Source: Burkholderiales bacterium
GTDB taxonomy: Bacteria > Pseudomonadota > Gammaproteobacteria > Burkholderiales > SG8-41
Direction: 5' to 3'
Length of the DNA: 63,082 bases
NCBI GenBank assembly: GCA_035574195.1
Contig: DATLZE010000170.1
Coordinates: forward strand, 1 to 63,082
Shown here: in pieces, positions 13,857 to 45,375 of the stretch
How the letters are laid out: every line of letters begins with the position of its first letter
How positions within the stretch are numbered: the first letter of the stretch is position 1
The notes under the pieces: generated by a model
What the model saw: only the letters and a program-made list of their open reading frames with translations
Databases searched by the model: none
Told to the model about the DNA's origin: nothing
Translations under genes and position numbers: made by a program

Positions 13857-13899
13857 TCGGGGCGTAGCGCAGCCTGGTAGCGTACCGGCATGGGGTGCC
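13857..13899 (+). pseudogene. Left att repeat: 5' half of tRNA-Pro(GGG)
   Basis: 43 bp identical to 21994-22036; diverges within the 3' strand of the anticodon stem and is followed by AGCTTTTTT. Confidence 0.92.
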
Positions 13900-14033: not shown

Positions 14034-14062
14034 TTGACCCTCATACGGGTTTCCCGTATGAT
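14034..14062 (+). promoter_or_regulatory. Sigma70 promoter with overlapping palindromic operator
   Basis: TTGACC-17 bp-TATGAT; perfect inverted repeat TCATACGGG-ttt-CCCGTATGA at 14041-14061. Confidence 0.75.
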
Positions 14063-14069
14063 GCCCGGC

Positions 14070-14273
14070 ATGAACGCGAAGCGGATTCGTGAGATCCGGG
14101 CCCGCCTGGGGCTCACGCAGCGCGAGCTCGGCGAGCTGCTCAACGTGTCGCCGCGCACCGTGCAGGATTGGGAGCAGGGACGCCACGCGCCGCGGAGCTC
14201 GGCGATTCTGCTCCTGGAGCTGGCCGACCGCGGATTGCTGACGCGGGCGCCTCGTCAAGGCGACCGGGCGTGA
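14070..14273 (+). CDS. Xre/Cro-C1 HTH regulator (probably leaderless)
   Basis: IREIRARLGLTQRELGELLNVSPRTVQDWEQG HTH pattern; ATG at the expected +1 of the promoter. Confidence 0.85.
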   Translation: MNAKRIREIRARLGLTQRELGELLNVSPRTVQDWEQGRHAPRSSAILLLELADRGLLTRAPRQGDRA

Positions 14274-14791
14274 CGAGCGACAATTCCAGGCGCGCCAAAG
14301 AGGAGCGCATCCTCAGACGGGCCGCCGCCATTCTCGAGCGCCGCCTACTCGCCCCTCGCGGCCCGAAAATTCACAGCTCTCACGAGGCGAAGCAGTTCGT
14401 CGCGCTCCGCCTCGCGCACGAGCAGCGCGAGGTCATCCTCGCAATCTGGCTGGACGCCGACGGGCGCGTCCTGGCGGTGGAAGAAGCAGCGTTTGGCACG
14501 GTCCACAAGGTGGTTCTGCATCCGCGGGAGCTCGTGCGGAGTGCGCTCCGCCTCAACGCCTGCCGCCTCATCATCGCGCACAATCATCCGGGCGGCTCGG
14601 CGGACTTCTCCAAGAGCGACCGGATTTTGACGGAATCGCTGCGCCACGCCCTGAGTCTCATAGACGTCGAGGTGCTGGATCATCTGCTGATCGGCGAGCG
14701 CGTCGTGTCGCTGGCCGAGATCGAGGCCAGCGAACGCGCCAAGCAGCCGGAGCGCGCAGCACCACCCGAGGCCTTGCACGAGGCGCCATGA
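14270..14791 (+). CDS. RadC-like JAB domain protein
   Basis: Intact JAMM motif HNH-x7-S-x2-D (HNHPGGSADFSKSD), VLDHLLIG; GTG overlaps the xre stop. Confidence 0.88.
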   Translation: MTSDNSRRAKEERILRRAAAILERRLLAPRGPKIHSSHEAKQFVALRLAHEQREVILAIWLDADGRVLAVEEAAFGTVHKVVLHPRELVRSALRLNACRLIIAHNHPGGSADFSKSDRILTESLRHALSLIDVEVLDHLLIGERVVSLAEIEASERAKQPERAAPPEALHEAP

Positions 14792-15486
14792 TCGCGCGCC
14801 GCCGACCGCCAGCCGCAGCCCGTCGCCGGCGCGCGAGGGCCGCAAAGGCTCGCGCAAGGCGCCCCGTATCGCCTGAACGGCCGCCCGCCCGGGTCGCCGC
14901 TGTAATCGCATCGCTGGCGCCCGGGGAGCGTATTTCGTGGTCGCCCGGGCAAGATCCTGATCGGCTCCGAGCTGCGCTGTGGCTTGCGAGCGGGCCCGGA
15001 CGCGCTTGGCGGGTCGAGCGATGGGCGCAGAGCGTCAAGGACGGCAAGGAGCGGCTCGATCTCGCGCGCAACGTGATCGCTCTGGTCGCGAGGATCCGGG
15101 AACTCTACCGCGCAGGCAACGGGCGGCTCGCCGACATCCTGGTCGAACGGGCCGAGCGGATGGTGGAGCGGGCGGGATACCTCAAGCTTTTTGATCTCGA
15201 TTTGCTGCCGCTATGGGAGCAGCAACGACGGGCTGCCTCGCAACCGAGAAGCAAGGTCGTGATGCTTGTCAGGGACGAAATCGCCGCCGCACTGAGCGCG
15301 GGCGTGCAGCTCACGGCTCGGAGGCTGCTCGATTTCATGCAGCAACGCGGGAAAGCGCTCAAGACCAACGATGGCTACGTGGGATTTCTTGATAATCAAT
15401 CTCACGTTATTGGGTATGTACTTTTTCAATCGTATAAAACCTTGGTCTCCCGAGAGAAGAAGAAGATGAGCGCTGGCAGCTTGTAG
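14788..15486 (+). CDS. Hypothetical protein
   Basis: 232-aa ORF coupled to radC by ATGA; AT-richer 3' end; no family recognised; start uncertain. Confidence 0.55.
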   Translation: MIARRRPPAAARRRRARAAKARARRPVSPERPPARVAAVIASLAPGERISWSPGQDPDRLRAALWLASGPGRAWRVERWAQSVKDGKERLDLARNVIALVARIRELYRAGNGRLADILVERAERMVERAGYLKLFDLDLLPLWEQQRRAASQPRSKVVMLVRDEIAAALSAGVQLTARRLLDFMQQRGKALKTNDGYVGFLDNQSHVIGYVLFQSYKTLVSREKKKMSAGSL

Positions 15487-15565: not shown

Positions 15566-16252
15566 GTGGGCCGGCGCCTGATCGAATTTCCAGAATATCA
15601 CGCGTGTTTATCTAAGCTCGAGGAGCTCTCTGTCGAATTTGGGAAAACGAGAGACCAGGCGCGCGATCTCGAGGTTCGCCTCGCGAACCTACGCGGCGCG
15701 CGTGTTTCCGCCGCGACCGACGAGGTTGAGGCCGAAGCGACCGCGCTCGTCGCCGGCAACGACGGCGGCGCGCGCGAAGTCGCCCGTCTACGTGATGACC
15801 TTGCGGCGCTCCGCCATCGCGCCCGCGTGCTCGGGCGTGCAGTGCAGCTCCAAGAGATCGCGCTCGAAGCACTTCGCGGCCGACTGAGTGCGCGCGTCGC
15901 GGCAGAGGTTAAAGAGGAGCACCGCGAACTCGCGCGCCGCATCGCGCGCGCCGCGATCGAACTCGCGCGAGCGCTCGAGGCCGAGGCCGCCTTCCGGCGC
16001 GAGCTCTCAGACGGCGGCATCCTGGCGGATGTTCTACCAGCAGCCCAGCTTCCCGGTTTCCGCCTAGCCGCGGAGGGGTCGCGCATTGGCGCCTTCCTCC
16101 TGCGCTTGCTCGGCGCCGGCCTCATCGCTGTGGATGACTTGCCAGACGAGCTCAAAACCCAGGGCGAGGCGCTTCTTCGCGCAGAAGCGGCGCAGCCGGG
16201 GGTTGTTCCCAGATCGCGGCGGGTCTCTCGTCCCTGGTTTTTCGAGACGTAA
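15566..16252 (+). CDS. Hypothetical coiled-coil protein
   Basis: 228 aa, L/A/E/R-rich heptad-like helical sequence; AAAGGA just upstream of GTG. Confidence 0.65.
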   Translation: MGRRLIEFPEYHACLSKLEELSVEFGKTRDQARDLEVRLANLRGARVSAATDEVEAEATALVAGNDGGAREVARLRDDLAALRHRARVLGRAVQLQEIALEALRGRLSARVAAEVKEEHRELARRIARAAIELARALEAEAAFRRELSDGGILADVLPAAQLPGFRLAAEGSRIGAFLLRLLGAGLIAVDDLPDELKTQGEALLRAEAAQPGVVPRSRRVSRPWFFET

Positions 16253-16263
16253 AGACACCCATC

Positions 16264-16749
16264 ATGCCGGGGCGAACACGCGAGCGCGTGAAGGGGCGGA
16301 GGGCACGCGGAAGTTTCGTGGCATTGCCACACGAGTATTTCGAGAGCCCCGAGTATGCAGAACTGTCGCCGCGCGCGGTCAAGGCGCTGCTCGACATCTA
16401 CTGTCAGTTCCGCGGTTCGAACAACGGCCTGTTGACTGCGTCATGGGGCATCATGCGGGCGCGCGGCTGGCGCTCGAAGTCGAACCTTCGAAACGCCGTG
16501 CGAGAGTTGCTCGACCGCGGATGGTTGATTACCACCCGCCGAGGCGGGCGGCACTGCGCGACCTGTTTCGCGGTAACGTTCTTAGGAATAGACGAGTGCG
16601 GCGGGGCGCTCGATATCACGCCGTCGCCCTACCCGTTGCACTTGTGGCGGCGCTCGTGCTCGCTCCGGAAAAATTTTTTTCCTACCCCACCTGTGTTCGA
16701 AGGAAGGCCACCTGCGGGGCAGAATTGCCCCACCGAGAACACCCTGTAG
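16264..16749 (+). CDS. Winged-HTH protein, putative replication initiator
   Basis: FVALPH...NNGLL...GWRSKSNLRNAVRELLDRGWLITTRRGG pattern, which I recognise from proteobacterial prophage/integrated-element HTH proteins. Confidence 0.6.
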   Translation: MPGRTRERVKGRRARGSFVALPHEYFESPEYAELSPRAVKALLDIYCQFRGSNNGLLTASWGIMRARGWRSKSNLRNAVRELLDRGWLITTRRGGRHCATCFAVTFLGIDECGGALDITPSPYPLHLWRRSCSLRKNFFPTPPVFEGRPPAGQNCPTENTL

Positions 16750-16812
16750 CCCGCATATGGTGCAATCGAAGGCATTTTCGCCAAAATTTCGCCCCACCAG
16801 CGGGGTGCAATT
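16685..16812 (+). repeat. Iteron-like direct repeats
   Basis: CCCCACC at 16685, 16728, 16792; CCACCnGCGGGGnnnAATT at 16708-16726 and 16794-16812 (15/19 identical). Confidence 0.5.
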
Positions 16813-16886
16813 CTATATTTACCATGTGCGCGGTGTTTAGCAGCGTAGCGATGATGAACTCTCGGCGTGAAAATGACGCGGTCGCT

Positions 16887-16909
16887 AACGGTGACTATGG
16901 GTCACCGTT
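16887..16909. other. Perfect 9-bp inverted repeat (terminator or operator)
   Basis: AACGGTGAC-tatgg-GTCACCGTT followed by TTCT. Confidence 0.55.
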
Positions 16910-16981
16910 TTCTCGTCCCGGTCCGGGCGCGGCGAGGCGCGTTGTCCGCGCGCCGCAGCGCGCCGCGCACGTGCTCGGACC

Positions 16982-17070
16982 GGAGGGTGGGTTAAAACTT
17001 CGGGGGCTGGGCGCTGGCGACCGTGCGCCCAATCGCGCGCGCGCCGTCGCGAAATTGGCAAGGGGGGGGT
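16982..17070 (+). promoter_or_regulatory. Candidate cos-like packaging region
   Basis: GGGTGGGTTAAAACTTC...GACCGTGCGCCCAA...CGCGAAATT...GGGGGGGG resembles, from memory, the non-coding DNA upstream of terS in HK97-like prophages; unverified. Confidence 0.45.
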
Positions 17071-17088
17071 TGGCAAGGAGTTTCTAAG

Positions 17089-18897
17089 ATGAGCGCTCTC
17101 GGGAAGCTGGTGATCGAGCTCTCGGCTGATACCGTCCAGTTCGCGAGCGACCTCGGCAAAGCCGCCCGCCTCTCCGAGCAGCGGGCGCAGGAGATCTCGA
17201 GGGCGCTCGGCGTTGCGACGGGCGCGTTCGCCTCGTTGACTGCCGCCGCGGCTGCCTTGGCGAAGTCAGCGATCAACGACATGGACGCGCTCAACAAAAT
17301 GTCGCAGCGAGTCGGGGTGTCGGTTGAAGCGCTCTCGAGCCTGAGATACGCCGCGCAGCTCGCCGACGTGAACACGGAGGCGCTCGGCGTCGGCCTGCGG
17401 AAGTTGAGCGTCCACATGCTCGACGCCCAGGCCGGGACGGGCGAGGCGCATGAAGCGTTCCGGGCCCTGGGCGTCGAGGTGAAGAACGCGGACGGCTCGC
17501 TGCGCGGGGCGCATGACGTGCTGCGCGACGTTGCGAATCGCTTCGCCGCGATGCAGGACGGTGCCACCAAAACCGCGTTCGCGGTGCGATTGTTCGGCAA
17601 GAGCGGCTCCGACCTGATCCCGCTGCTGAACCAGGGCGCTGCTGGCCTGGACCTCGCGGCGAAAGAAGCCGAGCGCTTCGGGCTCATCGTGACCGCCGAA
17701 GCCGCCAAGGCAGCGGAAGAATTTAACGACAACCTGACGCGCCTCGGCCGAGCCGCTTCCGCGCTCGGGATCTCGCTCGCCTCGCCGCTGCTGGAGACTC
17801 TGGTCAGCATCACGAATCAACTGCGGGATGCCGCAACCGCCGCAGGCGGCTTCTGGAAGGCGTTGCTCGATCCCGGCATCAGCGGTATCGCCGACCCGGG
17901 GAAGAAGATCCTCGAGCTCGAGGGCAAGCTCGCGAAGCTGAAAAAGCTGCGCGATGAGCTTTCGGTCCCGACGCTCACGAATCGGCTGAATGATCTCGTG
18001 TTCGGCGACGTGCATGACCTCAATCTCCAAATCGCGGCGCTCGAGAAGCAGCTCGCGATTTTGCGGTCCATGCAGGACATCAAGCTCGAGCGCCTCGCGG
18101 TCGAGTCCATTCATCGAGCGAAGGCGCCGCCGCCGCGGCTGCCTGGTGGCGCCAGAAAAGACGCCGAGAACCTCGTGGGGCGCGCCTGGGCGGAAAATCA
18201 GGAGGAGTGGAACCGGATCATGTCCGAGGCCGCCGCCGCGAGCGACAAGTTCAACGCCACCATGCGCGAGCGCGCCTTCTTCGAAAACATGGCCTGGCCG
18301 GGCGTCGAATCGAGCGAGGAGTTCCAGCGTCGCCTGAAGGCGCTGGACGAGCTGCTCGAGCTCGAGGAACGGCATATGCGGCTCATGGCCGGCTTCGACG
18401 AGACCGGCAAAGATCTGAACGAGACGCTCAAACAGCAAACCGACATCGCCCGCGAGCTGGGGCTGAGCTTCAGCTCCGCCTTCGAGGACGCGGCGATCGC
18501 CGGCAAGCGGCTCTCGGAGGTGCTCAAGGGGCTCGCGCAGGATGTCGCCCGCATTGTCTTTCGTCGCAGCGTGACCGAACCCTTGGCGAGCGCGGTCTCG
18601 AGTTTCGCCGGCGACCTGTTTAAAGGCTTCTTTAGCGCCCGGGCGCACGGTGGCGCGGTCGCGCCCGGGCGCGGTTACGTGGTCGGCGAGCGCGGCCCCG
18701 AGCTGTTCGTCCCGAGCACTGCGGGCGAGATCGTGCCGGCGCACGAGCTCGGGGCGACCACGATCGTAAATCTGGCGGTCAACCTAACATCGCTCGATCC
18801 GCGGGGCGCGGCGGCTGTCATCGCGCAGAACGCGCCCGTCGTGCTCGACATCGTGCGCCGCGAGGCTCACAAGCGACTGCGGGCGAGCCCGGTCTAG
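17089..18897 (+). CDS. Phage tail tape measure protein (602 aa)
   Basis: AAGGAG RBS; MSALGKLVIELSADT N-terminus, Ala-rich helical body, lambdoid-type C-terminus ARAHGGAV...YVVGERGPELFVP. Confidence 0.88.
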   Translation: MSALGKLVIELSADTVQFASDLGKAARLSEQRAQEISRALGVATGAFASLTAAAAALAKSAINDMDALNKMSQRVGVSVEALSSLRYAAQLADVNTEALGVGLRKLSVHMLDAQAGTGEAHEAFRALGVEVKNADGSLRGAHDVLRDVANRFAAMQDGATKTAFAVRLFGKSGSDLIPLLNQGAAGLDLAAKEAERFGLIVTAEAAKAAEEFNDNLTRLGRAASALGISLASPLLETLVSITNQLRDAATAAGGFWKALLDPGISGIADPGKKILELEGKLAKLKKLRDELSVPTLTNRLNDLVFGDVHDLNLQIAALEKQLAILRSMQDIKLERLAVESIHRAKAPPPRLPGGARKDAENLVGRAWAENQEEWNRIMSEAAAASDKFNATMRERAFFENMAWPGVESSEEFQRRLKALDELLELEERHMRLMAGFDETGKDLNETLKQQTDIARELGLSFSSAFEDAAIAGKRLSEVLKGLAQDVARIVFRRSVTEPLASAVSSFAGDLFKGFFSARAHGGAVAPGRGYVVGERGPELFVPSTAGEIVPAHELGATTIVNLAVNLTSLDPRGAAAVIAQNAPVVLDIVRREAHKRLRASPV

Positions 18898-18907
18898 AGG
18901 GGGCGCA

Positions 18908-19192
18908 ATGAAGGCCGAACTGCTGGAAGCCCTGAGACGCAGAGAAGAACGGATCGAGGTGGCCGGCCACGTGCTCATCGTGCGCGAGCCCGCGGCCGGC
19001 GACCAGCTCGATGATCTGTCCAGCGACCCCGACGCGGCCTACAAGTTGATCGTGGCTTGCACATACGACGCCGACGGCAACCGGGTTTTCACCGATGACG
19101 ACATCCCCGCCCTCAAGGCGGCCTCGCGCGGTTACGTGAAGCAGATCATCGAAATTCTCAACCGGATGCTCGTCGAGGATCGCAATGGGTGA
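18908..19192 (+). CDS. Tail assembly chaperone-like protein 1
   Basis: VREP...DADGNRVFTDDD pattern resembling Phage_TAC_1-type chaperones. Confidence 0.65.
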   Translation: MKAELLEALRRREERIEVAGHVLIVREPAAGDQLDDLSSDPDAAYKLIVACTYDADGNRVFTDDDIPALKAASRGYVKQIIEILNRMLVEDRNG

Positions 19193-19518
19193 GACCTCGC
19201 TCTTTTCCGAGCAGATGCTCCAGAACGCGGCACGGAGCAGGCGATTCGTGCAGTCTCTACGGGAAGCCCTCGGGCGTCGGGCCGACGAGATGCAGCGATT
19301 GTCGGCGGGGTTATCGCGCCGCGAGGCGCGCGTTCAGATCGGCGGGCAGATTTTGTGCGTGCGCGAGCCCGCGGCCGGCGACCAGCTCGATGATCTGTCC
19401 AGCGACCCCGACGCGGCCTACAAGTTGATCGTGACTTGCACATACGACGCCGACGGCAACCGGGTTTTCACCGATGACGACATCCCCGCCCTCAAGGCGG
19501 CCTCGCGCGGCTACGTGA
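18979..19518 (+). repeat. 161-bp direct repeat pair (18979-19139 and 19358-19518)
   Basis: Only 2 mismatches (19055 G/19434 A; 19132 T/19511 C). Confidence 0.95.
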
Positions 19519-19610
19519 GGCGGCTCGTCGAGAACATCAGCCGGGTGCTTATCTCGAGGACGTTTACCTATGCTCACCGTCGAGGTGCGCGGCCTGCGCG
19601 AGCTGCGTAA
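19185..19610 (+). CDS. Tail assembly chaperone-like protein 2 (N-terminally extended paralogue)
   Basis: Same core as ORF 18908 plus a helical N-terminal extension; overlaps both neighbours. Confidence 0.55.
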   Translation: MGETSLFSEQMLQNAARSRRFVQSLREALGRRADEMQRLSAGLSRREARVQIGGQILCVREPAAGDQLDDLSSDPDAAYKLIVTCTYDADGNRVFTDDDIPALKAASRGYVRRLVENISRVLISRTFTYAHRRGARPARAA

Positions 19611-20070
19611 CGCCCTGCTGGCGCTGCCGCGCCGCATCGCCCGGCCGCTGCTCAATCGCAGCCTGATGGTAGGCGGGCGGCTGATCCGAGATGAAGCGCG
19701 GGCCCGGGTACCGCTGCTGCGCGTGCCTGACCGGCGGCGCGTGCGCGGCGCGCTGCGGCGCGCGATTCACGCCGGCGTGGCGCGGCCCCAGGGTCACGCC
19801 GCGAGTGTGTGGGTGCGCGTGCGCCCCCTCACGCGCGGCCAGATCGCCGCTTTCAAGCGCAGGGCGGGCGCAGGCGCTCAAAATCCTCTCGATCCGTTTT
19901 ACTGGAGATGGCTGGAGTTCGGCACGTCGAAGATGGCCGCGCGCCCGTTCCTGCGCCCCGCCTTCGAGGCGAAAAAAGAACAGGCCGCGCGCGCAATCAT
20001 CGCCGATCTACGCCCTCGGATTCTCGCCGAGGCTGAAAAACTCGGGCGACGAACAATGGGGGGCTTATGA
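19570..20070 (+). CDS. HK97 gp10-family tail/neck completion protein
   Basis: VEVRGLRELRNAL N-terminus; YWRWLEFGTSKMAARPFLRPAF signature. Confidence 0.85.
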   Translation: MLTVEVRGLRELRNALLALPRRIARPLLNRSLMVGGRLIRDEARARVPLLRVPDRRRVRGALRRAIHAGVARPQGHAASVWVRVRPLTRGQIAAFKRRAGAGAQNPLDPFYWRWLEFGTSKMAARPFLRPAFEAKKEQAARAIIADLRPRILAEAEKLGRRTMGGL

Positions 20071-20291
20071 GACGCCCGCGGCGCACCATCAAACGCGAGT
20101 CGCTCGCGCTCTACCGCGGCCGGCCGCTGGTGCTGATCGTGCCGCCGATCTGTGATGTCATCAGAATTCGCGAAAAAGGCCGCCGAACGGCTTTCGAAAT
20201 TGACCTGTTGAGCGTCTACGACCTCGCCGCGCGCAAGGCCGCAGCGCAGTTGCTTGAACAACGTGGCCGACGCGCAGGGAAAATGCCGTGA
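20067..20291 (+). CDS. Small basic hypothetical protein
   Basis: 74 aa, coupled to both neighbours (ATGA, GTGA). Confidence 0.55.
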   Translation: MRRPRRTIKRESLALYRGRPLVLIVPPICDVIRIREKGRRTAFEIDLLSVYDLAARKAAAQLLEQRGRRAGKMP

Positions 20292-20488
20292 ACTGCCCGA
20301 TTTGCCAGTACCCGCACAGTCACGTGTATCTGACGAAGTCCAACAGCGAGACCGTCCGGCGCCGGCGCGAATGCTTGCGGTGCAAGCACCGCTGGACGAC
20401 GTACGAAACGATGGAGCAGGTGATCGCCAAGTTGGCCGAGATCAGGCGGGTCATCTCCGTGTTGCAGGACCAGTGCGGGGGGGCGTAG
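20288..20488 (+). CDS. Stand-alone zinc-ribbon protein (NrdR N-terminal / Ogr-Delta-like)
   Basis: C-x2-C-x22-C-x2-C with RRRRECLRC...WTTYE; no ATP-cone domain. Confidence 0.7.
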   Translation: MNCPICQYPHSHVYLTKSNSETVRRRRECLRCKHRWTTYETMEQVIAKLAEIRRVISVLQDQCGGA

Positions 20489-20489
20489 C

Positions 20490-21620
20490 ATGTTGCGCGT
20501 GGGGAGGCCGCGGAAGAAGGCGAAGGATCTGCCGCTTGGCGTGTACTCGGTCAAGGGGCGCTTCTACGTGCGCCCCGTCAACGCGGAAATGCGCCGGGTG
20601 TTCGCGACTACGTTCCCGGGCCGGAAATGTGCGCCGCTGGGCGCCGACAAGCACGAGGCCCGCAAGCGGTGGGTTCAGTTGTTCGTCACCGATCGCCCGG
20701 AATCCGCCCAGGCCGGCACCGTCGCCGAGCTGATCGAGCGCTACGAGCGGGACATCATCCCCACCCTGCACGAGCGCACCGGCAGGGACCGCAAAGGCTA
20801 CTGTAAGCGGCTGCGGGATGCCCTGGGGGGCTGGAAATACGCCAGGAGCGAAGCGGAGGCCGCTACCGGGCCGTTCCTGCGTTCCATCCACATCACGCGC
20901 TATCTGCGCGACCAGGAGGCCGCTGGGCGCCCTGTGGCGGGCAACAAGGAGATCCGCTGCCTATCCCGCATCTTTAGGCTCGCAAAGACCCTGTGGGGCT
21001 ATACCGAGTACAACCCCTGCCTCCAGATCGAGCACAACATCGAGACCCCGCGGGGCGTCTACGTGACCGATGACATGTTCCGCCGGGTCTACGACAAGGC
21101 CCCCGCGGTGCTCCAGTGCATGATGGACCTGGCGCAGATGGTCGGCGCGCGTCGCGGCATGATTCTGAAGTTGACGCTCGCCGACGTGACACCCGAGGGG
21201 CTGCGCGTCACGCTCAACAAGCGCAAGCGCACCGAGGCCGTGCGCCGGCAGATTGTGCGTTGGACCGACGACCTGCGGGCTGTGATTGACCGGGCGCTCG
21301 AGCTGCGGGCAAAGGTGCGGGGTGGACAGCGGGAGATCAAGGATCTGGACACCGCGCCCCTGTTCCTCAACCGCTTGGGCAAGGCGTTCAGTGAGACGGG
21401 GTTTAACAGCATGTGGCAACGCGCACGCGCCGCAGCGGGTTTCGAGGCGCACGAAATTCACTTCCACGACCTCAAGGCGAAATCCGTGAGCGACAGCCCG
21501 AACGAGATTGACGCCATGAACCGCGGCGGCCACCTGGACCTCAGAACCACCAGGCGCATCTACCGCCGCAAGCCGATCGAGGTCGTTCCGCTGCCGCGGG
21601 TGAGCGGCAAGCCCGCCTGA
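20490..21620 (+). CDS. int: Tyrosine recombinase/integrase
   Basis: GARRGMILKL (R), FHDLKAK box, GGH...TTRRIY (H, Y); adjacent to the right att repeat. Confidence 0.9.
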   Translation: MLRVGRPRKKAKDLPLGVYSVKGRFYVRPVNAEMRRVFATTFPGRKCAPLGADKHEARKRWVQLFVTDRPESAQAGTVAELIERYERDIIPTLHERTGRDRKGYCKRLRDALGGWKYARSEAEAATGPFLRSIHITRYLRDQEAAGRPVAGNKEIRCLSRIFRLAKTLWGYTEYNPCLQIEHNIETPRGVYVTDDMFRRVYDKAPAVLQCMMDLAQMVGARRGMILKLTLADVTPEGLRVTLNKRKRTEAVRRQIVRWTDDLRAVIDRALELRAKVRGGQREIKDLDTAPLFLNRLGKAFSETGFNSMWQRARAAAGFEAHEIHFHDLKAKSVSDSPNEIDAMNRGGHLDLRTTRRIYRRKPIEVVPLPRVSGKPA

Positions 21621-21893
21621 TATATGCTGCTTACCCTACGAGATCTCTACGAAAGCGGCGGCTCGCAAATCGTCGAGGCCGATGGGAATTCGGCCGGGAT
21701 TGCGGTCGTGAGCGGGATCGGCGCCGCGGTTTTCCTCGCCGAAGGCGAGAGTAATGGAGTCGCGGCGGTCTCCGGCGTTGGCGCGGCGCTGTGGAATGCC
21801 GCTGGCGCGGGCGATGGGGTCGCGGCGGTCTCCGGCGTTGGCGCGGCTCCGCGGAGGCCTCCGCCAGAAGGGTGAGCGGCAAGCCCGCCTGAT
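21598..21893 (+). repeat. 24-bp perfect direct repeats (21598-21621, 21870-21893)
   Basis: GGGTGAGCGGCAAGCCCGCCTGAT, the integrase 3' end, occurs twice 272 bp apart. Confidence 0.95.
21624..21875 (+). CDS. Short Gly/Ala/Val repeat ORF (possible virion-protein fragment)
   Basis: Three 20-aa repeats (G[IV]A[VA]VSG[IV]GAA); 29-bp identical blocks at 21759 and 21819; stop codon lies in the second 24-bp repeat. Confidence 0.45.
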   Translation: MLLTLRDLYESGGSQIVEADGNSAGIAVVSGIGAAVFLAEGESNGVAAVSGVGAALWNAAGAGDGVAAVSGVGAAPRRPPPEG

Positions 21894-21986: not shown

Positions 21987-21994
21987 TCTGCTCT

Positions 21995-22071
21995 CGGGGC
22001 GTAGCGCAGCCTGGTAGCGTACCGGCATGGGGTGCCGGTGGTCGTGAGTTCAAATCTCACCGCCCCGACCA
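21995..22071 (+). tRNA. tRNA-Pro(GGG), intact copy
   Basis: CGGGGCG/CGCCCCG acceptor stem, CCGGC-ATGGGGT-GCCGG anticodon arm, GTTCAAAT T-loop, CCA. Confidence 0.97.
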
Positions 22072-37320: not shown

Positions 37321-40300
37321 ATGGGGAACATCTCTCCGGGACTGAGCGCGGTCATCGTCCTCAACGTCCTGCTGCTCGAGGACCAGGACGAGGACGCCTT
37401 GCTGGTGGAGCGGGCGCTCCGCGGCACGGGTTGCGCCTATACGCTCAAGCGCGCGCGCAATCGGGCCGAATTCGTCGCGCAGCTCGATCCCGCGCTCGAC
37501 CTCGTGCTTTCGGATTTCCACCTGCCCGATTTCGACGCCCTCGGCGCGCTCGACCACCTGAAGGAGCGCGGTCTCGACATCCCCCTGATCTTGGTGTCGG
37601 GGGAGGCGCGCGAGGAGGAGGTGCTCGCGGCCGTGCGGCGCGGCGCCGCGGACTTCCTGTCCAAGGACCGGCTGGTGAGGCTCGGCGCGGTGATCCGCTC
37701 CGTGCTCGAGCAGCGCGCGCTGCGCCAGCAGGCGCGCGAAGTCCAGCTCGCGCTGGAGCGCAGCCGCGAGGAGCTCGACTTCGCCTTCGAGAACGCCGCG
37801 ATCGGCATCGCGCTCACCACGCTCGACGGGCGCTGGCTGCGGGTCAATCCCGCCCTCGCGCGGCTGATCGGCTATACCGAGGCGGAACTGCTCGCGACCG
37901 ATTGCCGCAGCGTGACCCATCCCGACGACGCGCCGCGCGACATCGAGCTGCTCGAGAAGCTCGTCGCGGGTGAGCTGGGCACTGCCCAGCACGAGAAGCG
38001 CTACATCCACAAGCTCGGGCACGCGGTCTGGACGCAAGTGACGGCCTCGCTGGTGCGCGACCACGAAGGCCGGCCGCGCCATTGCATGCTGCAAGTCCTC
38101 GATACGACCCGGCGCAAGCAGGTCGAGGAGCGGCTGCAGGCCCTGTTCGAACAGGCGGCGGTCGGCATCGCCCACACCACGCTCGAGGGCACGATCCTCG
38201 AGGCGAACCGCAAGCTCGCCGAAATCCTCGGCTATTCCGCGCAGGCGCTGCGCGGGATGACCACGCGCGAGCTCACCCATCCCGAGGACCGCGACCGGCA
38301 GGACGCCCTGCGGCTGGAGCTCATCTCCGGCGCGCGCCGCTCGTTCGGCGGCGAGAAGCGCTGCGTGCGTGCCGACGGGCGCGTGATCTGGGTCCACCGC
38401 ACCGTGACCCTCGCCCGCCCGGCGGCGGGAGGCGCCCCCTATCTCGTCCAGGTATTCGAGGATATCACCGAGCGCAAGCTCGCCGAGCTGGCGCTGCACG
38501 ATTCCGAGCGGCGTTACGCGGAGCTGGTGGATTCCGTCGAGGGCATCGTCTGGGAGGCCGACCCGCGGACACTCCAGTTCACGTTCGTGAGCCGCCGGGC
38601 CGAGCGCCTGCTCGGCTACCCGCTCGAGCGCTGGCTGAAGGAGCCGGCGTTCTGGCGCGACCACCTCCATCCCGACGACCGCGAATGGGCCCTCGCCTAC
38701 TGCGTGAAGGCGACCGCCGAGGGGCGCCCGCACGATTTCGAGTACCGGATGATCGCCGCAGACGGCCGGGTCGTGTGGCTGCGCGACATCGTGAACGTGA
38801 CCGTCGAGGGCGGCCGGCCGGTGCGCACGCAGGGCGTGATGGTGGACATCACCGCAGCCAAGCTGGCCGAGGAGCGCCTGCAGCGCGTGAACCGCGCGCG
38901 CCGGGTGCTCGCCGAATGCAGCCACGCGCTCGTCTACGCGACCTCGGAGCGGGAGCTGCTGCAGGCGATGTGCCGCATCGTGGTCGAATCCGGCGGCTAC
39001 GTGCAGGCGTGGATCGGGCTCGCGCAGGACGACGAGCGCAAATCGGTGCTGCCCGCGGCCAGCGCCGGTTTCGAGGAAGGCTACCTCGAGAAGAAGTCCG
39101 TGACCTGGGCGGGCGGCGAGGAGAACCCGCACACGATGGGGCGGGTGATCGCGACCGGCAGGCGCTACATTTCGCAGAACATCTTCACCGACCCGCCCTC
39201 GCTCCACCTGGTGGAGCGAGGGCGCCTGCGCGGCTTCCAGTCCCTGATCGGCTTGCCGCTCCACGTGGGGGGGCGCTGTATCGGCGGCTTCGCCATCTGC
39301 GCGCGCGAGCCGGACGCGTTCGGAGAGGAGGAGGTCGCGCTGCTCGAGACGCTGGCCCAGGACCTGTCCTACGGCATCGCCTCGCTGCGCGCCGAGGCGG
39401 CCCGCCGGGCGGCCGAGGAGAAGGTGCGGCGCCTGGCCCGGGCCCGCAAGGTGATGGCGGAGTGCAACCACGTCCAGATGCACGCCACCGACGAGACCGA
39501 GATGCTCGAGCGCATGTGCCGCATATTGGTCGAATCCGGCGGCTACAAGATGGCGTGGGTGGGGCTGCCCACCGGCGACTCCGCCCGGCCGATCCGCCCG
39601 GTCGCCCACGCCGGCTACGGGGACGACGCGCCGATGACGGGGCCGGTCGCATGGGACGAGGCGGGCCGCTACCGCGGCTTCATGCACGAAGTGATCACGA
39701 CCGGCGTCCCGCACATCGCGCGCGACATCCTGAACGACCCCGCGCACGCGCGGCGCCGCGCGCGCGCGCTGCAGCACGGCTTCCAGTCCTCGATCGCGCT
39801 GCCGCTCGAAAGCGGCGGGGCGATTCTCGGGGCGATCGCGGTCTACGCGCGCGAGCCCGACGCGTTCGACGAGGAGGAGATCGCGCTGCTCACCGAGCTG
39901 GCGGGCGACGTCGCGTTCGGGCTGTCGAGCCTGCGCGAGCGCGCCGCACGGCGCGCGGCCGAGGCCTCGCTGCACGAGAGCGAGCAGCGCTTTCGCGAGA
40001 TCTTCGAGCAGGCCGCGGTCGGTCTCACGCGGGTGGACCTCGACGGCGTGCTGGTCGAGGTCAACCAGAAGTTCTGCGACCTGCTGGGCTACACCCGCGA
40101 GGAGCTGCTGGGCAAGACAATCAAGGACATCACCCATCCCGAGGATTACGGCAAGGGCGCCCGCTACCGGGAGGGGCTGGCGCAGGGCCCGGCGCAGCCG
40201 GAATCGGGCGAGAAGCGGTTCATTCGCAAGGACGGCACCGCTGTCTGGGTGCGGCGCACCCTGTCCGCCGCCTGCGACGAGTCCGGCAGGCCGAAGTACG

Positions 40301-43300
40301 TGATCAGCGTCATCGAGGACATCACCGCGCGCAAGGAGCTGGAACGGCGCTTCGAGCTGACGTTCGACCACGCCGGAGTCGGCATGACCCAGGTGAGCCT
40401 GGAAGGAGTTCTGCTCCAGGCCAACCAGAGATACGCCGAGCTGCTGGGCTACACCCGCGAGGAGCTGTGCGGGCGCCCGGTGCTCGATTTCACGCACCCG
40501 GAGGACCGGGCTGACACCCTGGAGGCGAGAAGGAAGCTCATCTCCGGCGAGGCCGGGAGCGTGCAGAGCGAGAAACGCCTGCTGCGCAAGGACGGGCGCG
40601 CGATCTGGGTCAACCGCACGGTATCGCTCGCGCGCGACGAGTCGGGAAAGCCGCGCTATTTCGTCAGCGTCATCGAGGACATCACCGCGCGCAAGGAAAC
40701 CGAGGAGCGCTACCGCGCGACCTTCGATCACGCGCCGATCGGCATCATGCACACGGCGCTCGACAGCTATCGCATTCTCCAGGTCAATCCCAAGCTGTGC
40801 GAGATGCTCGGCTACACGCGCGAGGAGCTGCTCGGGATGACGAGCTCGGATGTCGTGCACCCGGACTACCGCTTCCAGGACCGGGCCGAGTACATGGAGA
40901 AGATGCTGCGCGGCGAGATCGCCTCGTTCACCTCGGAGCGCCTCTTCGTGCGCAAGGACGGCACGCCGCTCTGGGTCAACCGCACGGTGGCGCTCGCGCG
41001 CGACGGCGCCGGCAATCCGCTGCACTTCATCCGCATCGTGGAGGACATTTCGGAGCGCAAGCGCGCCGAACAGGAGCTCGAGCGCAAGAACGCGATGACG
41101 CGACTGCTCGAGGAGCTTGCGCGCGCCGCGAACGAGGCGGCCACGCCCGAAGCGGCGATGCGCTCCTGCCTCGAGCGCATCTGCGCGCACGGCGGCTGGG
41201 CGCTCGGGCGGCTCGGCATCTACGGCGCCGGTGCGGACGAGGGCTTCCCCGGGATTTCCTACTGGCATCCGCTGCGGATCGCTCCATACCAGAGCCTCGT
41301 CGCCGCTTCGGGCACCGACTCCTTCTTCGCGCGCGGCGGCCAGTTCATCAGCGTGGTGCTGAAGGAGCAGCGGCCGGTGTGGATCGCCGACATCGCCGGC
41401 TGCCCGGGATTCGGCCGGCAGCAGGCGGCGCTCGCGTGCGGGCTGCGCTCGGCGTTCGCCTTCCCCGTGATCGTGGAGGGCAAGGTTGCGGCGTTCCTGG
41501 AATTCTTCGGGACGGCGCCGCGCGAGCCCGATCCCCTGCTCATGGAGGCGGCGCAGGCCGTGGGCAGCCAGCTCGCGCGCCTGATCGAGCGCTCGCGCGC
41601 GGCGAGGACCGCGGAGCGGATCGCTGCGATCGTGGAATCCTCGCCGGACGCCATGATCAGCATCGGGCTGGACGGCACCATCCTCAGCTGGAACCGGGGC
41701 GCGCAGGAGATCTTCGGCTACCCGGCGCAGGAGGCGCTCGGGCGCAACGTGAGCATGCTCTTTCCCGAGGAGCGGCGGCACGAGATCGGCAGCACGAGAT
41801 CGGCGATCCTCGCCGGCGAGACGGTGCGGGCGAAGGACACGGAACGGCTCGCCCGGGACGGCCGGCGCGTGCAGGTTTCGCTCAGCGCCTCGCCGCTCAG
41901 GGACGGCGCGGGCGAGGTGACCGGCATCGCCCTCGTGTATCGCGACATCACCGAGCGCAAGCAGGCGGAGGAGGCGATCGCACGCGAGCGCGCGCTGCTG
42001 CGCACCATCATTGACGCGCTGCCCGATTACATCTTCGTCAAGGACCGCGACGGCCGGTTCCTCCTCGCCAACGAGCCCTGGCTCAGGGCGCGGGGAATGA
42101 AGCTCGAGGAGATCGTCGGCAAGACGGTGTACGACGTGTTCCCGCGCGAGATGGCGCAGAGCATGGCGGAGCAGGACGAGAAAGTCGTCGCGACCGGCGA
42201 GCCGCTGCTCGACCACGAGACCATGGTGGCGGCGAAGGACGCCGCGAGCGGGGAGGCGGTGTACCGCTGGTCGCTCACGAGCAAGGTGCCGCTGCGCGAC
42301 GCCACGGGCGCGATCATCGGCACGGTCGGCATCGCCCGCGACATCACCGAGCGGCAGCTCGCCGAGCAGGCGCTGCGCGAGAGCGAGGAGCGCTTCCGCG
42401 CGATCTTCGAGCAGGCCGGGGTGGGCATCGCGCTGCGCGCGATCGAGCCGCGCAACCCGCGCTGGCTGCGCGTCAACCAGAGGCTCGCCGACATCTTCGG
42501 CTACACCCAGGAGGAGATGCTCGGACTCACCTCGGTGGACCTCACCCCTGCCGAGGAGCGCGCCCAGGCGATCGAGTTCAACGAGCGGCTCGCCAGCGGC
42601 GAGCTCACGAGCTACACGCGCGAGAAGCGCTACGTGCGCAAGGACGGCCGCGTGATCTGGGCGCGCGTCTCGCTCGCGACCGTGCGCGGAGCCGACGGCC
42701 GGCCGAAGAGCGTCGTGTCGGTGATCCAGGACGTGACCGAGCAGGTGATCGCGGCGCGCCGCCGCGCGATGCAGAGCGCGGTCACCGGCGTGCTCGCCGA
42801 GGCGACGACGGTGGAGGAGGCGATGCCCAAGCTCTGCCGCGCCATCTGCGAGGCGATGGACTGGGCCTACGGCGCGTGGTGGCTCTGGAGCGAGCAGGAG
42901 AACGGGCTGGCCCGTGCCGGTTACTGGTGCAGTTTCGAGCCGCAGTTCGAGGAATCCGACCGCCAATACTGGTTCAAGCTCGGTTCAGGCGGCGGGGGGC
43001 TGGTGAGGCGGGCATGGCGCGAGCAGGAAGCCACCTGGCTCGCCGACATCGGGCAGGAGGAAAGCTTTCTGCGCAGGGCAAGCTGCGCGAAGCTCGGCTG
43101 GCGCAGCGCCTATGCGTTTCCGATCCTCGCCGGCACCGAGGTGATCGGCGTCATGGAGTTCTTCGGGAGCGACTCGCGCTCGCCGGGAGAGGCGCTTTCG
43201 CCGGTCTCGCGCACGGTCGGCAGCCAGATCGGCCAGTTCATCCAGCGCAAGCGGGCGGAGCAGGCGCTGCGCGAGAGCGAGGAGCAGTTCCGCCAGCTCG

Positions 43301-45375
43301 CGGGCAATATCCCGCAGGTGTTCTGGATTTCGGACGCCGCGCAGAAGCGCACGCTCTACCTGAGCCCCGCGGCGCAGACCCTGCTCGGGCGGCCGCTGGA
43401 GGCGCTCCTCTCCCGCCCCCGGCTGCTGGTGCGCGCGGTGCACCCGCAGGACCGCCCGCGCGTGCACGCCGCCCACAAGAGCGCGGCGAGCGGCGGCTAC
43501 GACCTGACCTACCGCGTGGTGCGCCCCGACGGGACCATCCGCTGGGTGCAGGACCGGGCATTCCCGGTGCATGATGCCGAAGGCCGGATCTACCGCATCG
43601 CCGGCATCACGGAGGACGTGACCGAGCGCAAGCTCGCGGAGGAGCGGCTGCTGCACCTCGCGCACTACGACGTGCTGACGAGCCTGCCCAACCGCGTGCT
43701 GTTCTACGACCGGCTGAAGCAGGTGCTGGCGCAGGCGCGGCGCAACCAGTGGACCGTGGGCGTCATGTTCATAGACCTGGACCGCTTCAAGAACGTGAAC
43801 GACACGCTCGGCCACTCCGTCGGCGACCGGCTGCTGCAGCAGGTCTCGGAGCGCCTCATGCGCGCGGTGCGCACCGGCGACACCGTGGGGCGGCTCGGCG
43901 GCGACGAATTCGCCATCGTGCTCTCCAACCTCGCGAGCGCGCAGGACGCGAGCCTGGTCGCGCAGAAGATCATGGCGAGCTTCAGCGAGCCGTTCAAGCT
44001 GGAAGGAACCGAGGTTTACGTCACGGCGAGCATCGGCATCACGCTGTATCCGGACGACAGCACCGACCAGGACACGCTGATCAGGAACGCCGACACCGCG
44101 ATGTACCGGGCGAAGGAAGTGGGGCGCAACAGCTACCAGTTCTACACGCCCGAGATGAACGCGCGCACGCTGGAGCTGCTCGGCATGGAGAACAGCCTGC
44201 GCCGCGCGCTCGACCGCGACGAATTCCTGCTCTACTACCAGCCCAAGGCGAGCATCGCCGATGGCGACATCGTGGGCGTGGAGGCCCTGCTGCGCTGGAA
44301 GCATCCGGAGCGGGGTATGGTCTCGCCGGCCGAGTTCATGCCGGTGCTCGAGGAGACCGGGCTCATCGTGTCGGTGGGCAACTGGGTGTTGAGGAGCGTG
44401 TGCGCGCAGATCAAGGCCTGGGAGCGGGCCGGGATCCGGCCAGTGCCGGTCGCCGTGAACCTGTCCGCCCGCCAGTTCGCCACCCGCGACCTGGGGGCGA
44501 CGATCAAGCGCGTCATCGAGGAGCACCGCGTGGATCCCCGGCTGATCGAGCTCGAGATCACGGAGAGCTCCCTCATGGCGAACACCGAGGAGGCGGTGAG
44601 GACGCTCGAGTACCTGAGCGGCCTCGGCGTGCGGCTCTCGATAGACGACTTCGGCACCGGCTACTCGAGCCTGGCCTACCTCAAGCGCTTCCCGCTCGAC
44701 GCGCTGAAGATCGACCGCTCGTTCGTCGCCGACCTCACCACCGACGCCGACGATTCCACCATCACCCGCGCGGTGATCTCGATGGCGCACAGCCTGGGGC
44801 TCAAGGTGGTCGCGGAAGGCGTCGAGACCGAATCGCAGCTCGCGTTCCTCTCCGAGTACGGCTGCGACGAGATCCAGGGCTATTATTTCGCGCGCCCGAT
44901 GCCCGCGGAGGAATGCGGCGCCTGGCTCAAGGAGGACCGCCGCCTGAAGCGCGCCCGTCCCGGCCCCGCCTCGGACGCGCCGGTGGTGCTGCTGGTGGAC
45001 GACGACGAGGACGCGCTCGCGCTGCTGCGGCGCTCGCTCGCCAAGGACGGCTACCGCATCCTCGCCGCGCGCAACGCGCACGAGGCGCTCGGGCTGCTCG
45101 GCGAGCAGCCGGTGGACGTGGTGATCTCCGACCAGAGCATGCCGGGCATGCCGGGCGTGGAATTCCTGCAGCGCGTGAAGGCGCTCTCGCCGCGGACGGT
45201 GCGCATGATGACGAGCGGCTACACCGATTTCCAGGCGATGACCGACGCGGTCAACAAGGGCGAGATCTTCCGCTTCCTGCCGAAGACCCTGAGCGAGGAG
45301 CGGCTGCGGGCGGATGTGCGCGAGGCGCTGCAGCTGCGGCTGCAGGCAGTGGCGCGCAACGGCCACCCGGCATGA
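37321..45375 (+). CDS. Giant REC-PAS-GAF-GGDEF-EAL-REC protein (2684 aa)
   Basis: By eye 2 REC, about 10 PAS and 4 GAF domains; RTGD..RLGGDEF and [17 protein letters not shown] intact. Confidence 0.92.

Follow-up and report, generated by a model that had tools for sequence, protein, structure and literature searches.

An intact tape measure protein gene in a capsid-less, satellite-like element of a Burkholderiales genome

We analyzed a tail tape measure protein (TMP) gene at positions 17089–18897 of a 63,082-nt stretch of DNA (hereafter the window, meaning the whole stretch) on contig DATLZE010000170.1 from a metagenome-assembled genome (MAG) of a Burkholderiales bacterium. The gene encodes a genuine, functional-looking siphophage TMP. 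It lies within an 8,137-bp insert that has the marks of a discrete mobile, integrated element, in which the only virion genes are those for the TMP, for a predicted tail assembly chaperone (TAC) and a duplicated, chimeric copy of it, and for an HK97-gp10-like neck protein. Comparison with related elements gives the satellite context of the TMP gene good support. We favor the reading that the insert is an active or recently active satellite that uses TMP replacement, forming hybrid tails from the parts of a helper phage, and we rate its chances as about even. By analogy with known systems, we infer that such a satellite would depend on a helper, express the gene, incorporate the product into tails and perhaps affect their length.

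Results

The tape measure gene

The reading frame runs on the + strand from an ATG at 17089 to a TAG at 18895–18897, an intact series of 602 codons. Its GC content by codon position (0.69/0.46/0.85) reproduces the pattern of the housekeeping gene pheT in this genome of ~69% GC. A ribosome-binding site, AAGGAG, is readable at 17075–17080, 8 nt 5′ of the ATG. The start codon is fixed by the N terminus of the protein, which is nearly matched in the closest homologue (MSALGRLVIELSADT). An initial annotation, made from the letters of the sequence, had described an intact 602-aa frame with its own AAGGAG site, and both the frame, with its coding-type codon bias, and the site are as it described them.

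The same annotation had named the product a tape measure protein, and this identity is confirmed. The protein exceeds the curated cut-offs of PF10145 (PhageMin_Tail; 36.0 bits against 33.2) and of TIGR01760 (38.6 bits against 28.8), matches PHROG tape-measure families with E values down to 1e-48, and has full-length homologues in canonical tail modules. When it was aligned with 17 homologues, homology extended from end to end, and all 19 invariant columns of the 18-sequence alignment were retained in the window protein. The family has a common layout: the N-terminal domain is conserved, the helical middle varies, and a C-proximal block of the form LGL.F.SAFEDA...GP.L.VP is again conserved. None of the 50,697 records in a phage collection covers more than 42% of the window TMP, and a sequence search of the PDB with TMP and TAC profiles returned nothing meaningful. 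The locus departs from the canonical position of a TMP gene: the chaperone and gp10-like genes lie downstream and are followed by the integrase gene, and tube and tip genes are absent.

The integrated element

Perfect 43-bp direct repeats at 13857–13899 (attL, + strand) and 21994–22036 enclose the 8,137-bp insert. They reproduce the 5′ half of tRNA-Pro(GGG), and the downstream copy, attR, forms part of the intact tRNA gene at 21995–22071 (attR and gene together, 21994–22071, + strand). Upstream of the insert stand pheT, an IHF/HU-family gene and a MerR-family gene. The GC content of the insert is 65.6%, compared with 70% in its flanks. When the flanks are joined, they align unbroken in another species of the genus, G015, which thus has an empty site; in several other same-genus species the MerR gene is followed directly by an intact tRNA-Pro gene. 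Perfect repeats, lower GC content and the empty site in G015 together show the insert to be a discrete integrated element. All of its genes lie on the + strand, and all of its open reading frames (ORFs) are open and have coding-type codon bias.

Elsewhere in the genus the same locus varies. The MerR–tRNA-Pro spacing is 1.7–3 kb in several species (for example G003:C121:60191-66349, G009:C62 and G016:C295), and G003 carries an extra partial copy of tRNA-Pro there. Given these gaps, the site appears to be an island hotspot of the genus.

Pfam and PHROG profile searches detected no capsid, portal, terminase, tube or tip genes in the element, and a search for hidden capsid remnants gave none at E ≤ 1 beyond noise. 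PADLOC models run against its proteins recognized no known defence gene, only a generic helix-turn-helix (HTH) match. The initial annotation had taken the TMP for that of a satellite, and this is supported by the setting of the gene, a small, satellite-like island of 8,137 bp with a tyrosine integrase and without tube, tip, capsid or packaging genes. A second capsid-less element with the same gene set was not found in our searches.

Relatives among small elements

The two best matches to the window TMP are P0002 (60% identity), carried by L001, and P0003 (49% identity over the full length), carried by L002. A tree of 62 sequences groups the window TMP with those of L001 and L002 in one clade (SH-aLRT 100). 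L001 (10,944 bp) and L002 (10,681 bp) each encode a major capsid protein of 373–374 aa, a TMP, an integrase, an HNH endonuclease and a primase. Two further small elements belong beside them. L143 (11,144 bp) has an integrase, a replication initiator, an HNH gene, terS, a capsid gene, a 610-aa TMP and a tail fibre. L185 (8,435 bp, cut inside its TMP gene) has an integrase, RadC, an alpA-like gene, a homologue of the 161-aa ORF of the window element, a capsid gene and the TMP. In both L143 and L185 the TMP gene directly follows the capsid gene. The complete TMPs of L001, L002 and L143 measure 593–616 aa, and neither a portal nor a large terminase was found on any of the four contigs. From their gene content, which resembles that of the EPIP satellites discussed below, the four look like an undescribed proteobacterial satellite group. 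The satellite reading of the initial annotation is supported in that the TMPs closest to the window protein are those of other small integrative elements.

Gene order ties the window element to L001. Both have the order TMP–TAC–small ORF–gp10–integrase on one strand, and their products are 55% (chaperone) and 68% (gp10-like protein) identical. The TMP gene of ordinary phages is instead preceded by the homologues of gp10 and TAC. Since the ancestral order is gp10–…–TAC–TMP and the order here is TMP–TAC–gp10, deletion alone cannot have produced the arrangement in the window.

A mosaic protein

Three portions of the window TMP differ in their affinities. Residues 1–260 are 71% identical to the L001 protein and 57% to that of L002, with phage TMPs at 44–53%. 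For residues 261–440, the length-setting middle, the values are 54% and 52%, and phage TMPs reach at most 27%. The relation is reversed in residues 441–515, which are 29% and 32% identical to the L001 and L002 proteins and 56–60% identical to phage TMPs (L003, L090 and L091). The ruler appears to have been inherited within the small-element lineage, and phages with lambda-like tips appear to be the source of the tip-proximal block. Such a mosaic suggests that the C-proximal domain is matched to the tip of the helper.

These results also qualify the lambdoid-type C terminus of the initial annotation. The PF09718 (Tape_meas_lam_C) profile finds no match in the window TMP even at E ≤ 1. It leaves sub-threshold traces in relatives (E 0.011–0.41) and matches at E 1e-23 the TMP of C74, the siphophage contig of the same MAG. 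On the other side, residues 418–572 of the window TMP align remotely with the PF09718-bearing C terminus of the C74 protein (25% identity, E 7e-6 by BLAST), and residues 441–515 have the phage affinity just described. The domain as defined by the profile is therefore not detected in the protein at that threshold, and a resemblance to the TMPs of phages with lambda-like tail tips stands.

Length of the protein and the expected tail

At 602 aa, the protein lies at the short end of its family, yet within the family range. We collected 155 complete TMP relatives by pattern scans of genomes and viral contigs, with no length filter and with small elements left out. They range from 547 to 1762 aa, with a median of 699 aa; 12 of them (8%) are no longer than 602 aa and 21 (14%) no longer than 616 aa. 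In a collection of 5.8 billion proteins, TMP homologues cluster at 590–730 aa in a search that had a built-in length window. Homologues of 612–639 aa (P0004, P0006, P0008 and P0012; loci L003 and L089–L091) sit in ordinary phage modules of the order gpU-MTP-G-T-TMP-M-L-K-I-J. Identity to the window TMP is 43–44% over 84–91% of the length for P0004, P0007 and P0008 (44% for P0004 and P0008), and 56–58% within the N-terminal third only for P0006 and P0012.

The gene had been called short, and its rank near the 8th percentile of the 155 relatives agrees with this; however, ordinary phages carry homologues of 612–639 aa. It would seem best, on this evidence, not to carry forward the claim of an unusually short gene as it was stated. 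A satellite-specific shortening to 602 aa is unsupported, the 612–639-aa TMPs of ordinary phages being the next-closest homologues. The initial annotation would have abandoned its proposal if the closest homologues were same-length TMPs of ordinary phages, and here the outcome is divided: the two closest are satellite-borne, and the next are the ordinary ones of 612–639 aa.

At 0.15 nm per residue, a tail built on 602 aa would be ~90 nm long. Because residues 441–515 resemble those of phages with lambda-like tips, the helper is probably a phage of that type, with a TMP of its own of ~612–639 aa. With such a helper, no marked change in tail length is expected: the C-proximal domain is shared with phage TMPs of 612–639 aa, so that the probable type of helper would yield tails of about equal length. 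The value of the gene to the element is then more likely to lie in replacing the TMP than in re-measuring the tail.

A siphophage contig in the same genome

A tblastn panel of 3,479 phage ORFs located a single siphophage contig in the MAG, C74, and the MAG contains neither a second PF10145 or P0001-like protein nor a PF05065 capsid. The minus strand of C74:1-20000 (L174) holds a siphophage structural module that is cut at the contig end. It encodes terS, a DNA methyltransferase, TerL, a portal, a MuF-like protein, a protease and a 311-aa capsid protein. It also encodes a 320-aa tail protein in the tube-gene position (labelled ‘minor tail protein’ by PHROG), G and T, a TMP of 802 aa with PF09718, and gpM-L-K-I-J. 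The M-L-K-I-J proteins are ~45–70% identical to those of L089–L091. The TMP, chaperones and tube protein belong to families other than the element’s, and the phage looks like a headful (pac-type) packager.

No DNA or motif common to C74 and the element was found. A G7 run on C74, considered as a counterpart of the conserved stretch upstream of the TMP gene, falls inside a methyltransferase gene. Because the contig and the element have neither DNA nor a motif in common and differ in chaperone type and TMP family, we did not accept C74 as the helper. The initial annotation had proposed a comparison with siphophage TMPs of the same host. The C74 protein is indeed 200 aa longer, but it is an unrelated TMP, and no link between its phage and the element was found. 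If C74 were the helper, tails of ~90 nm and ~120 nm would coexist.

Chaperones and neck protein

The gene at 18908–19192 (+ strand) directly follows the TMP gene and encodes a 94-aa protein that matches phrog_344 (E 4e-10). In ordinary phages its homologues occupy the G position, directly before the TMP gene. An AlphaFold (AF2) model from a 7-sequence alignment reached a pLDDT of 80 and a pTM of 0.67, and the top Foldseek matches of this model were to the HK97 TAC, 2OB9 (E 2e-4, probability 1.00, TM 0.60–0.63). A weak match to 5IR0, ORF19 of PLE1, a Vibrio PICI-like element (PLE), ranked sixth (E 1.9). From this predicted fold, the 94-aa protein is a putative tail assembly chaperone.

The second chaperone ORF, of 141 aa (19185–19610, + strand; phrog_344, E 2e-8), arises from a 379-bp tandem duplication (18938–19170 and 19317–19549) in which 174 nt are 96.6% identical. 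It combines a unique 44-aa N terminus, which weakly resembles a 76-aa ORF of L001, with a near-identical chaperone core. The duplication could be a recent rearrangement or an artefact of MAG assembly. We considered a programmed frameshift of the G/GT kind and rejected it: the second ORF, in the +1 frame, has an ATG of its own over the stop codon of the first (AATGGGTGA), and no slippery site was seen between the two. From the sequence, we read the overlap as translational coupling plus the 379-bp duplication.

The next gene, at 19570–20070 (+ strand), encodes the 166-aa HK97-gp10-like neck or tail completion protein (Ne1), which scores 51.3 with TIGR01725 (cut-off 30.8) and matches phrog_5 at E 5e-19.

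The upstream region

A non-coding region of 339 bp (16750–17088, + strand) precedes the TMP gene and contains the stretch that had been called cos-like. Of the 53 nt at 17020–17072, which end in GCAAGGGGGGGGTT, 41 are matched in L002:1641-1693 (E 2e-6). There the motif sits in the gap that separates the primase gene from the 145-aa/capsid operon, which it precedes and which continues to the TMP. Sequence conservation suggests an element held in an equivalent position, which could equally be a late promoter, an activator site or a packaging site. The run of eight G within the motif (G8, 17062–17069) is distinct from the AAGGAG of the TMP gene, and no second copy of the G8 motif was found in the genome of the element.

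The ends of L001 and L002 have no terminal overlap. The first 24 nt of L001 (L001:1-24) are what we take to be the 3′ part of the Illumina TruSeq adapter (CCCTACACGACGCTCTTCCGATCT). They lie ~35 nt before the G-run upstream of the first structural gene, in the counterpart of the cos-like region of the window, and the adapter may mark a physical DNA end.

Discussion

TMP replacement and its alternatives

The mechanism that we propose for a TMP-replacing satellite is drawn by analogy with PLE11 of Vibrio cholerae. When a helper siphophage replicates, the element would excise by means of its integrase, and a TMP-TAC-TAC′-gp10 operon would be expressed from the 339-bp upstream control region. The element’s TMP-TAC complex would then load onto the tail-tip initiator of the helper, whose tube protein would polymerise around the element TMP. 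The products would be chimeric tails with the element’s own lumen protein, finished at the head-proximal end by the gp10-like protein. Such replacement could give the element independence from the helper TMP, or a means to discriminate against it, and it could also give a different entry or defence-evasion specificity.

Several observations weigh against this proposal. No helper was identified; the sole siphophage contig of the MAG is pac-type, has a different tube and chaperones, and carries an unrelated TMP. The genome is a MAG of 206 contigs that is 91% complete, the sequence was found in one run only, a DNA metagenome, and each of the related elements is represented by a single contig of metagenomic origin. 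The + strand of the 339-bp region that precedes the TMP gene gave no match to a sigma-70-type promoter or a terminator. Signs of rearrangement are seen in the chimeric duplication of the chaperone and in the repeated 3′ end of the integrase gene. Finally, unlike its relatives, the element is without terS, HNH, capsid and primase genes and could be a decayed derivative.

This last possibility is the strongest of the alternatives, although we consider it unlikely. The element would descend from a capsid-encoding ancestor like L001 or L185, would no longer be able to spread, and would keep a TMP module that is intact but no longer in use. A capsid gene precedes the TMP gene in each of the four related small elements and is missing from the window element alone. 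The two duplications fit such a history, as does the lack of any close copy of the element in 61 related genomes or in a scan of one genome per species. Yet the att repeats are perfect, the integrase is intact, every ORF is open with coding-type codon bias, and the TMP keeps every invariant residue of its family. Nor is there a capsid pseudogene, so that either the loss of the capsid gene was clean or a capsid-less architecture is native to the element.

A further alternative, put forward in the initial annotation, is that shortness itself was selected, so that ~90-nm tails shorter than those of the helper form a class of their own, a tail analogue of capsid-size redirection. We regard this as quite improbable. 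It is consistent with the lengths of the four complete small-element TMPs (593–616 aa), which fall within the lowest 14% of the 155 relatives, and with the nearest outgroups to their clade in the tree, which measure 687–714 aa and come from canonical phage modules. Set against the 802-aa TMP of C74, the difference in tail length would be ~30 nm, and the PLE11 TMP, 95 aa shorter than that of ICP1, does give tails that are 10 nm shorter (PMC12987554). However, the TMPs closest to the window protein in its C-proximal domain are those of 612–639 aa in ordinary phages of the same family, nothing marks the C74 phage as the helper, and the length change in PLE11 is a by-product rather than a demonstrated function.

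There is a smaller chance still that the module interferes with tail assembly. The TMP and chaperone would then serve as decoys that mis-assemble the tails of an infecting siphophage and so shield the host population, with or without transfer of the element. A TMP-TAC pair of foreign origin would be in competition for tip complexes and tube protein, and tail assembly is a known target of satellite and prophage genes, such as Rta in PLE11 (PMC12987554) and the Tai systems (PMC11364771). Against such a role, no PADLOC defence model matched beyond the generic HTH, and a full-length TMP with a conserved tip-proximal domain, accompanied by a neck protein, looks built for working tails. An ordinary prophage remnant, in which random deletions left a few tail genes beside an integrase, would account for the small size, the phage origin of the tail genes and the tRNA hotspot, but it is very improbable, because deletion cannot yield the one-strand TMP-TAC-gp10 order, this order is kept in L001 at 55–68% protein identity, and the small-element TMPs form a clade of their own.

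Comparison with known satellites

A satellite that supplies its own TMP, as was suggested for the window, has experimental precedent in two systems, so that chimeric tails built on satellite TMPs are an established kind of system. In PLE11, the satellite itself carries the genes for a TMP, a chaperone and a baseplate hub (Mathur, Boyd et al., Nature 2026, PMC12987554). In chimeric tails, these three replace the counterparts of the helper ICP1, whose TMP is excluded from virions; the tails are shorter because the satellite TMP is, and PLE11 thereby escapes its own TMP-targeting inhibitor, Rta (PMC12987554). The same work reports predicted tmp genes in other satellites, including cf-PICIs (PMC12987554). 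The second system comprises the EPIPs, satellites of the Mycolicibacterium aichiense prophage HerbertWM, which encode a TMP and alter tail lengths (bioRxiv 2025, PMC12822802).

The window element resembles PLE11 in combining a TMP with an adjacent TAC and one further tail part; PLE11 draws every other tail part from its helper, as the window element would have to. The differences are several. ICP1 has a contractile tail, whereas the window TMP is of a lambda-like siphophage family. Beside its TMP and TAC, PLE11 encodes the baseplate hub BhuB; the window has an HK97-gp10-like neck protein and no hub-like gene. No Rta-like inhibitor was recognised in the window element, and its one link to the PLEs is the weak fold match of the chaperone to PLE1 ORF19 (5IR0, E 1.9). 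By analogy, the window module would work like a PLE module without being a member of the PLE family.

With the EPIPs, the likeness is to small TMP-encoding satellites as a type, and their terS, capsid, adaptors, integrase and TMP recall L143, L001 and L185. EPIPs are actinobacterial and use a serine integrase, whereas the integrase of the window element belongs to the tyrosine recombinases (PF00589). Their genes for terS, scaffold, capsid and adaptor proteins have no counterpart in the window element, and their tails are longer than those of the helper, not shorter. The cf-PICIs are likewise integrase-bearing satellites outside Vibrionaceae for which predicted TMP genes are reported. They are defined by terminase, portal, protease and capsid genes of their own, and no terminase, portal, protease or major capsid gene was detected in the window element. 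Because it has no hub gene, a tyrosine integrase, and no capsid or packaging genes, we place the element, from its gene content, outside the PLEs, the EPIPs and the cf-PICIs.

Two comparisons beyond TMP-encoding satellites are also useful. The ordinary siphophage TMPs of the PF10145/TIGR01760 kind (for example those of L003 and L089–L091 and, distantly, lambda gpH) are similar in length to the window TMP, share its N-terminal and C-proximal motifs, and are 43–44% identical over the full length and 56–60% identical over residues 441–515. They differ in setting, since their genes lie between G/T and gpM-L-K-I-J and the window chaperone gene lies downstream of the TMP gene, and the window protein has no detectable PF09718. 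P4 Sid and SaPI CpmAB provide the concept of a satellite that alters a dimension of the helper virion. They act on capsid size through scaffolding proteins, whereas in the window a change in dimension is not expected if the helper TMP has 612–639 aa.

Implications

Satellite-encoded TMPs were first shown experimentally only in 2025–2026, in Vibrio (PLE11) and in mycobacteria (EPIPs). If the window element and L001, L002, L143 and L185 are active, tail piracy through TMP replacement would reach the lambda-like siphophages of high-GC Proteobacteria as well. Of the cases known, the window element would then be the most reduced, with a TMP, a chaperone, a neck protein and no capsid or packaging genes. 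So reduced a gene set would make it a clean system in which to ask which tail components a satellite must encode itself if it is to obtain tails of its own or to mark them. The mosaic TMP, with a satellite-type ruler and a phage-type tip-proximal domain, offers a way to study how the compatibility of TMP and tip evolves.

A wider proposal can be put forward tentatively, as something we think possible but would not yet expect. The element may be a minimal, capsid-less siphophage satellite that contributes to virions no more than inner and upper tail parts, namely the TMP, the chaperone and the gp10-like neck protein. It would come from an undescribed proteobacterial lineage of 8–11-kb integrative elements with TMPs of ~600 aa, in which the ruler is inherited and phages supply, by exchange, a tip-proximal domain suited to the helper of the moment. 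Replacing the TMP, possibly with a shorter class of tails, would in that case be a general satellite strategy that serves with siphophages as well as in the pairing of myophage and PLE.

Other features of the element

The remaining genes of the element lie on either side of the tail module. Upstream, the first is a putative repressor, a 79-aa Xre-type HTH regulator (14034–14273, + strand; best NCBIfam HTH match E 2e-11; GC at third codon positions 0.84). It is followed by a RadC-like JAB protein of uncertain start codon (14168–14791, + strand; PF04002, E 6e-33), whose homologue holds the same relative position in L185. Three + strand ORFs then lead to the upstream region, and for these the results are those of family searches only, no deep homology search having been made. 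A 232-aa ORF with an Arg-rich N terminus (14788–15486) has no Pfam, PHROG, NCBIfam or PADLOC match. A 228-aa ORF, likely a coiled coil (15566–16252), has no match in Pfam, PHROG or NCBIfam apart from a weak SMC-like one. The third, of 161 aa (16264–16749), again has no Pfam, PHROG, NCBIfam or PADLOC match; it is 37% identical to the L185 ORF between the alpA-like and capsid genes, and one may guess at a DNA-binding protein or replication initiator.

Downstream of the gp10-like gene, a 74-aa ORF (20067–20291, + strand) without a match in PHROG, Pfam or NCBIfam is a candidate excisionase by position only. The 376-aa tyrosine integrase (20490–21620, + strand) matches phrog_1 (E 2e-26) and PF00589 (E 1e-8). 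The last 24 bp of its gene (21598–21621) recur exactly at 21870–21893, 272 bp downstream, and these repeats bound an 83-aa ORF rich in Gly/Ala/Val repeats (21624–21875, + strand), which has no family match and contains internal 34-bp repeats (21754–21787 and 21814–21847).

Runs of six to seven G stand 4–9 nt before start codons in several of these elements, at 20477–20483 in the window (integrase) and at L001:83-88 and L002:1701-1707 (first structural genes); from their position, they seem to serve as ribosome-binding sites. Outside the element, the window also contains a 2,684-aa ORF at 37321–45375 on the + strand.

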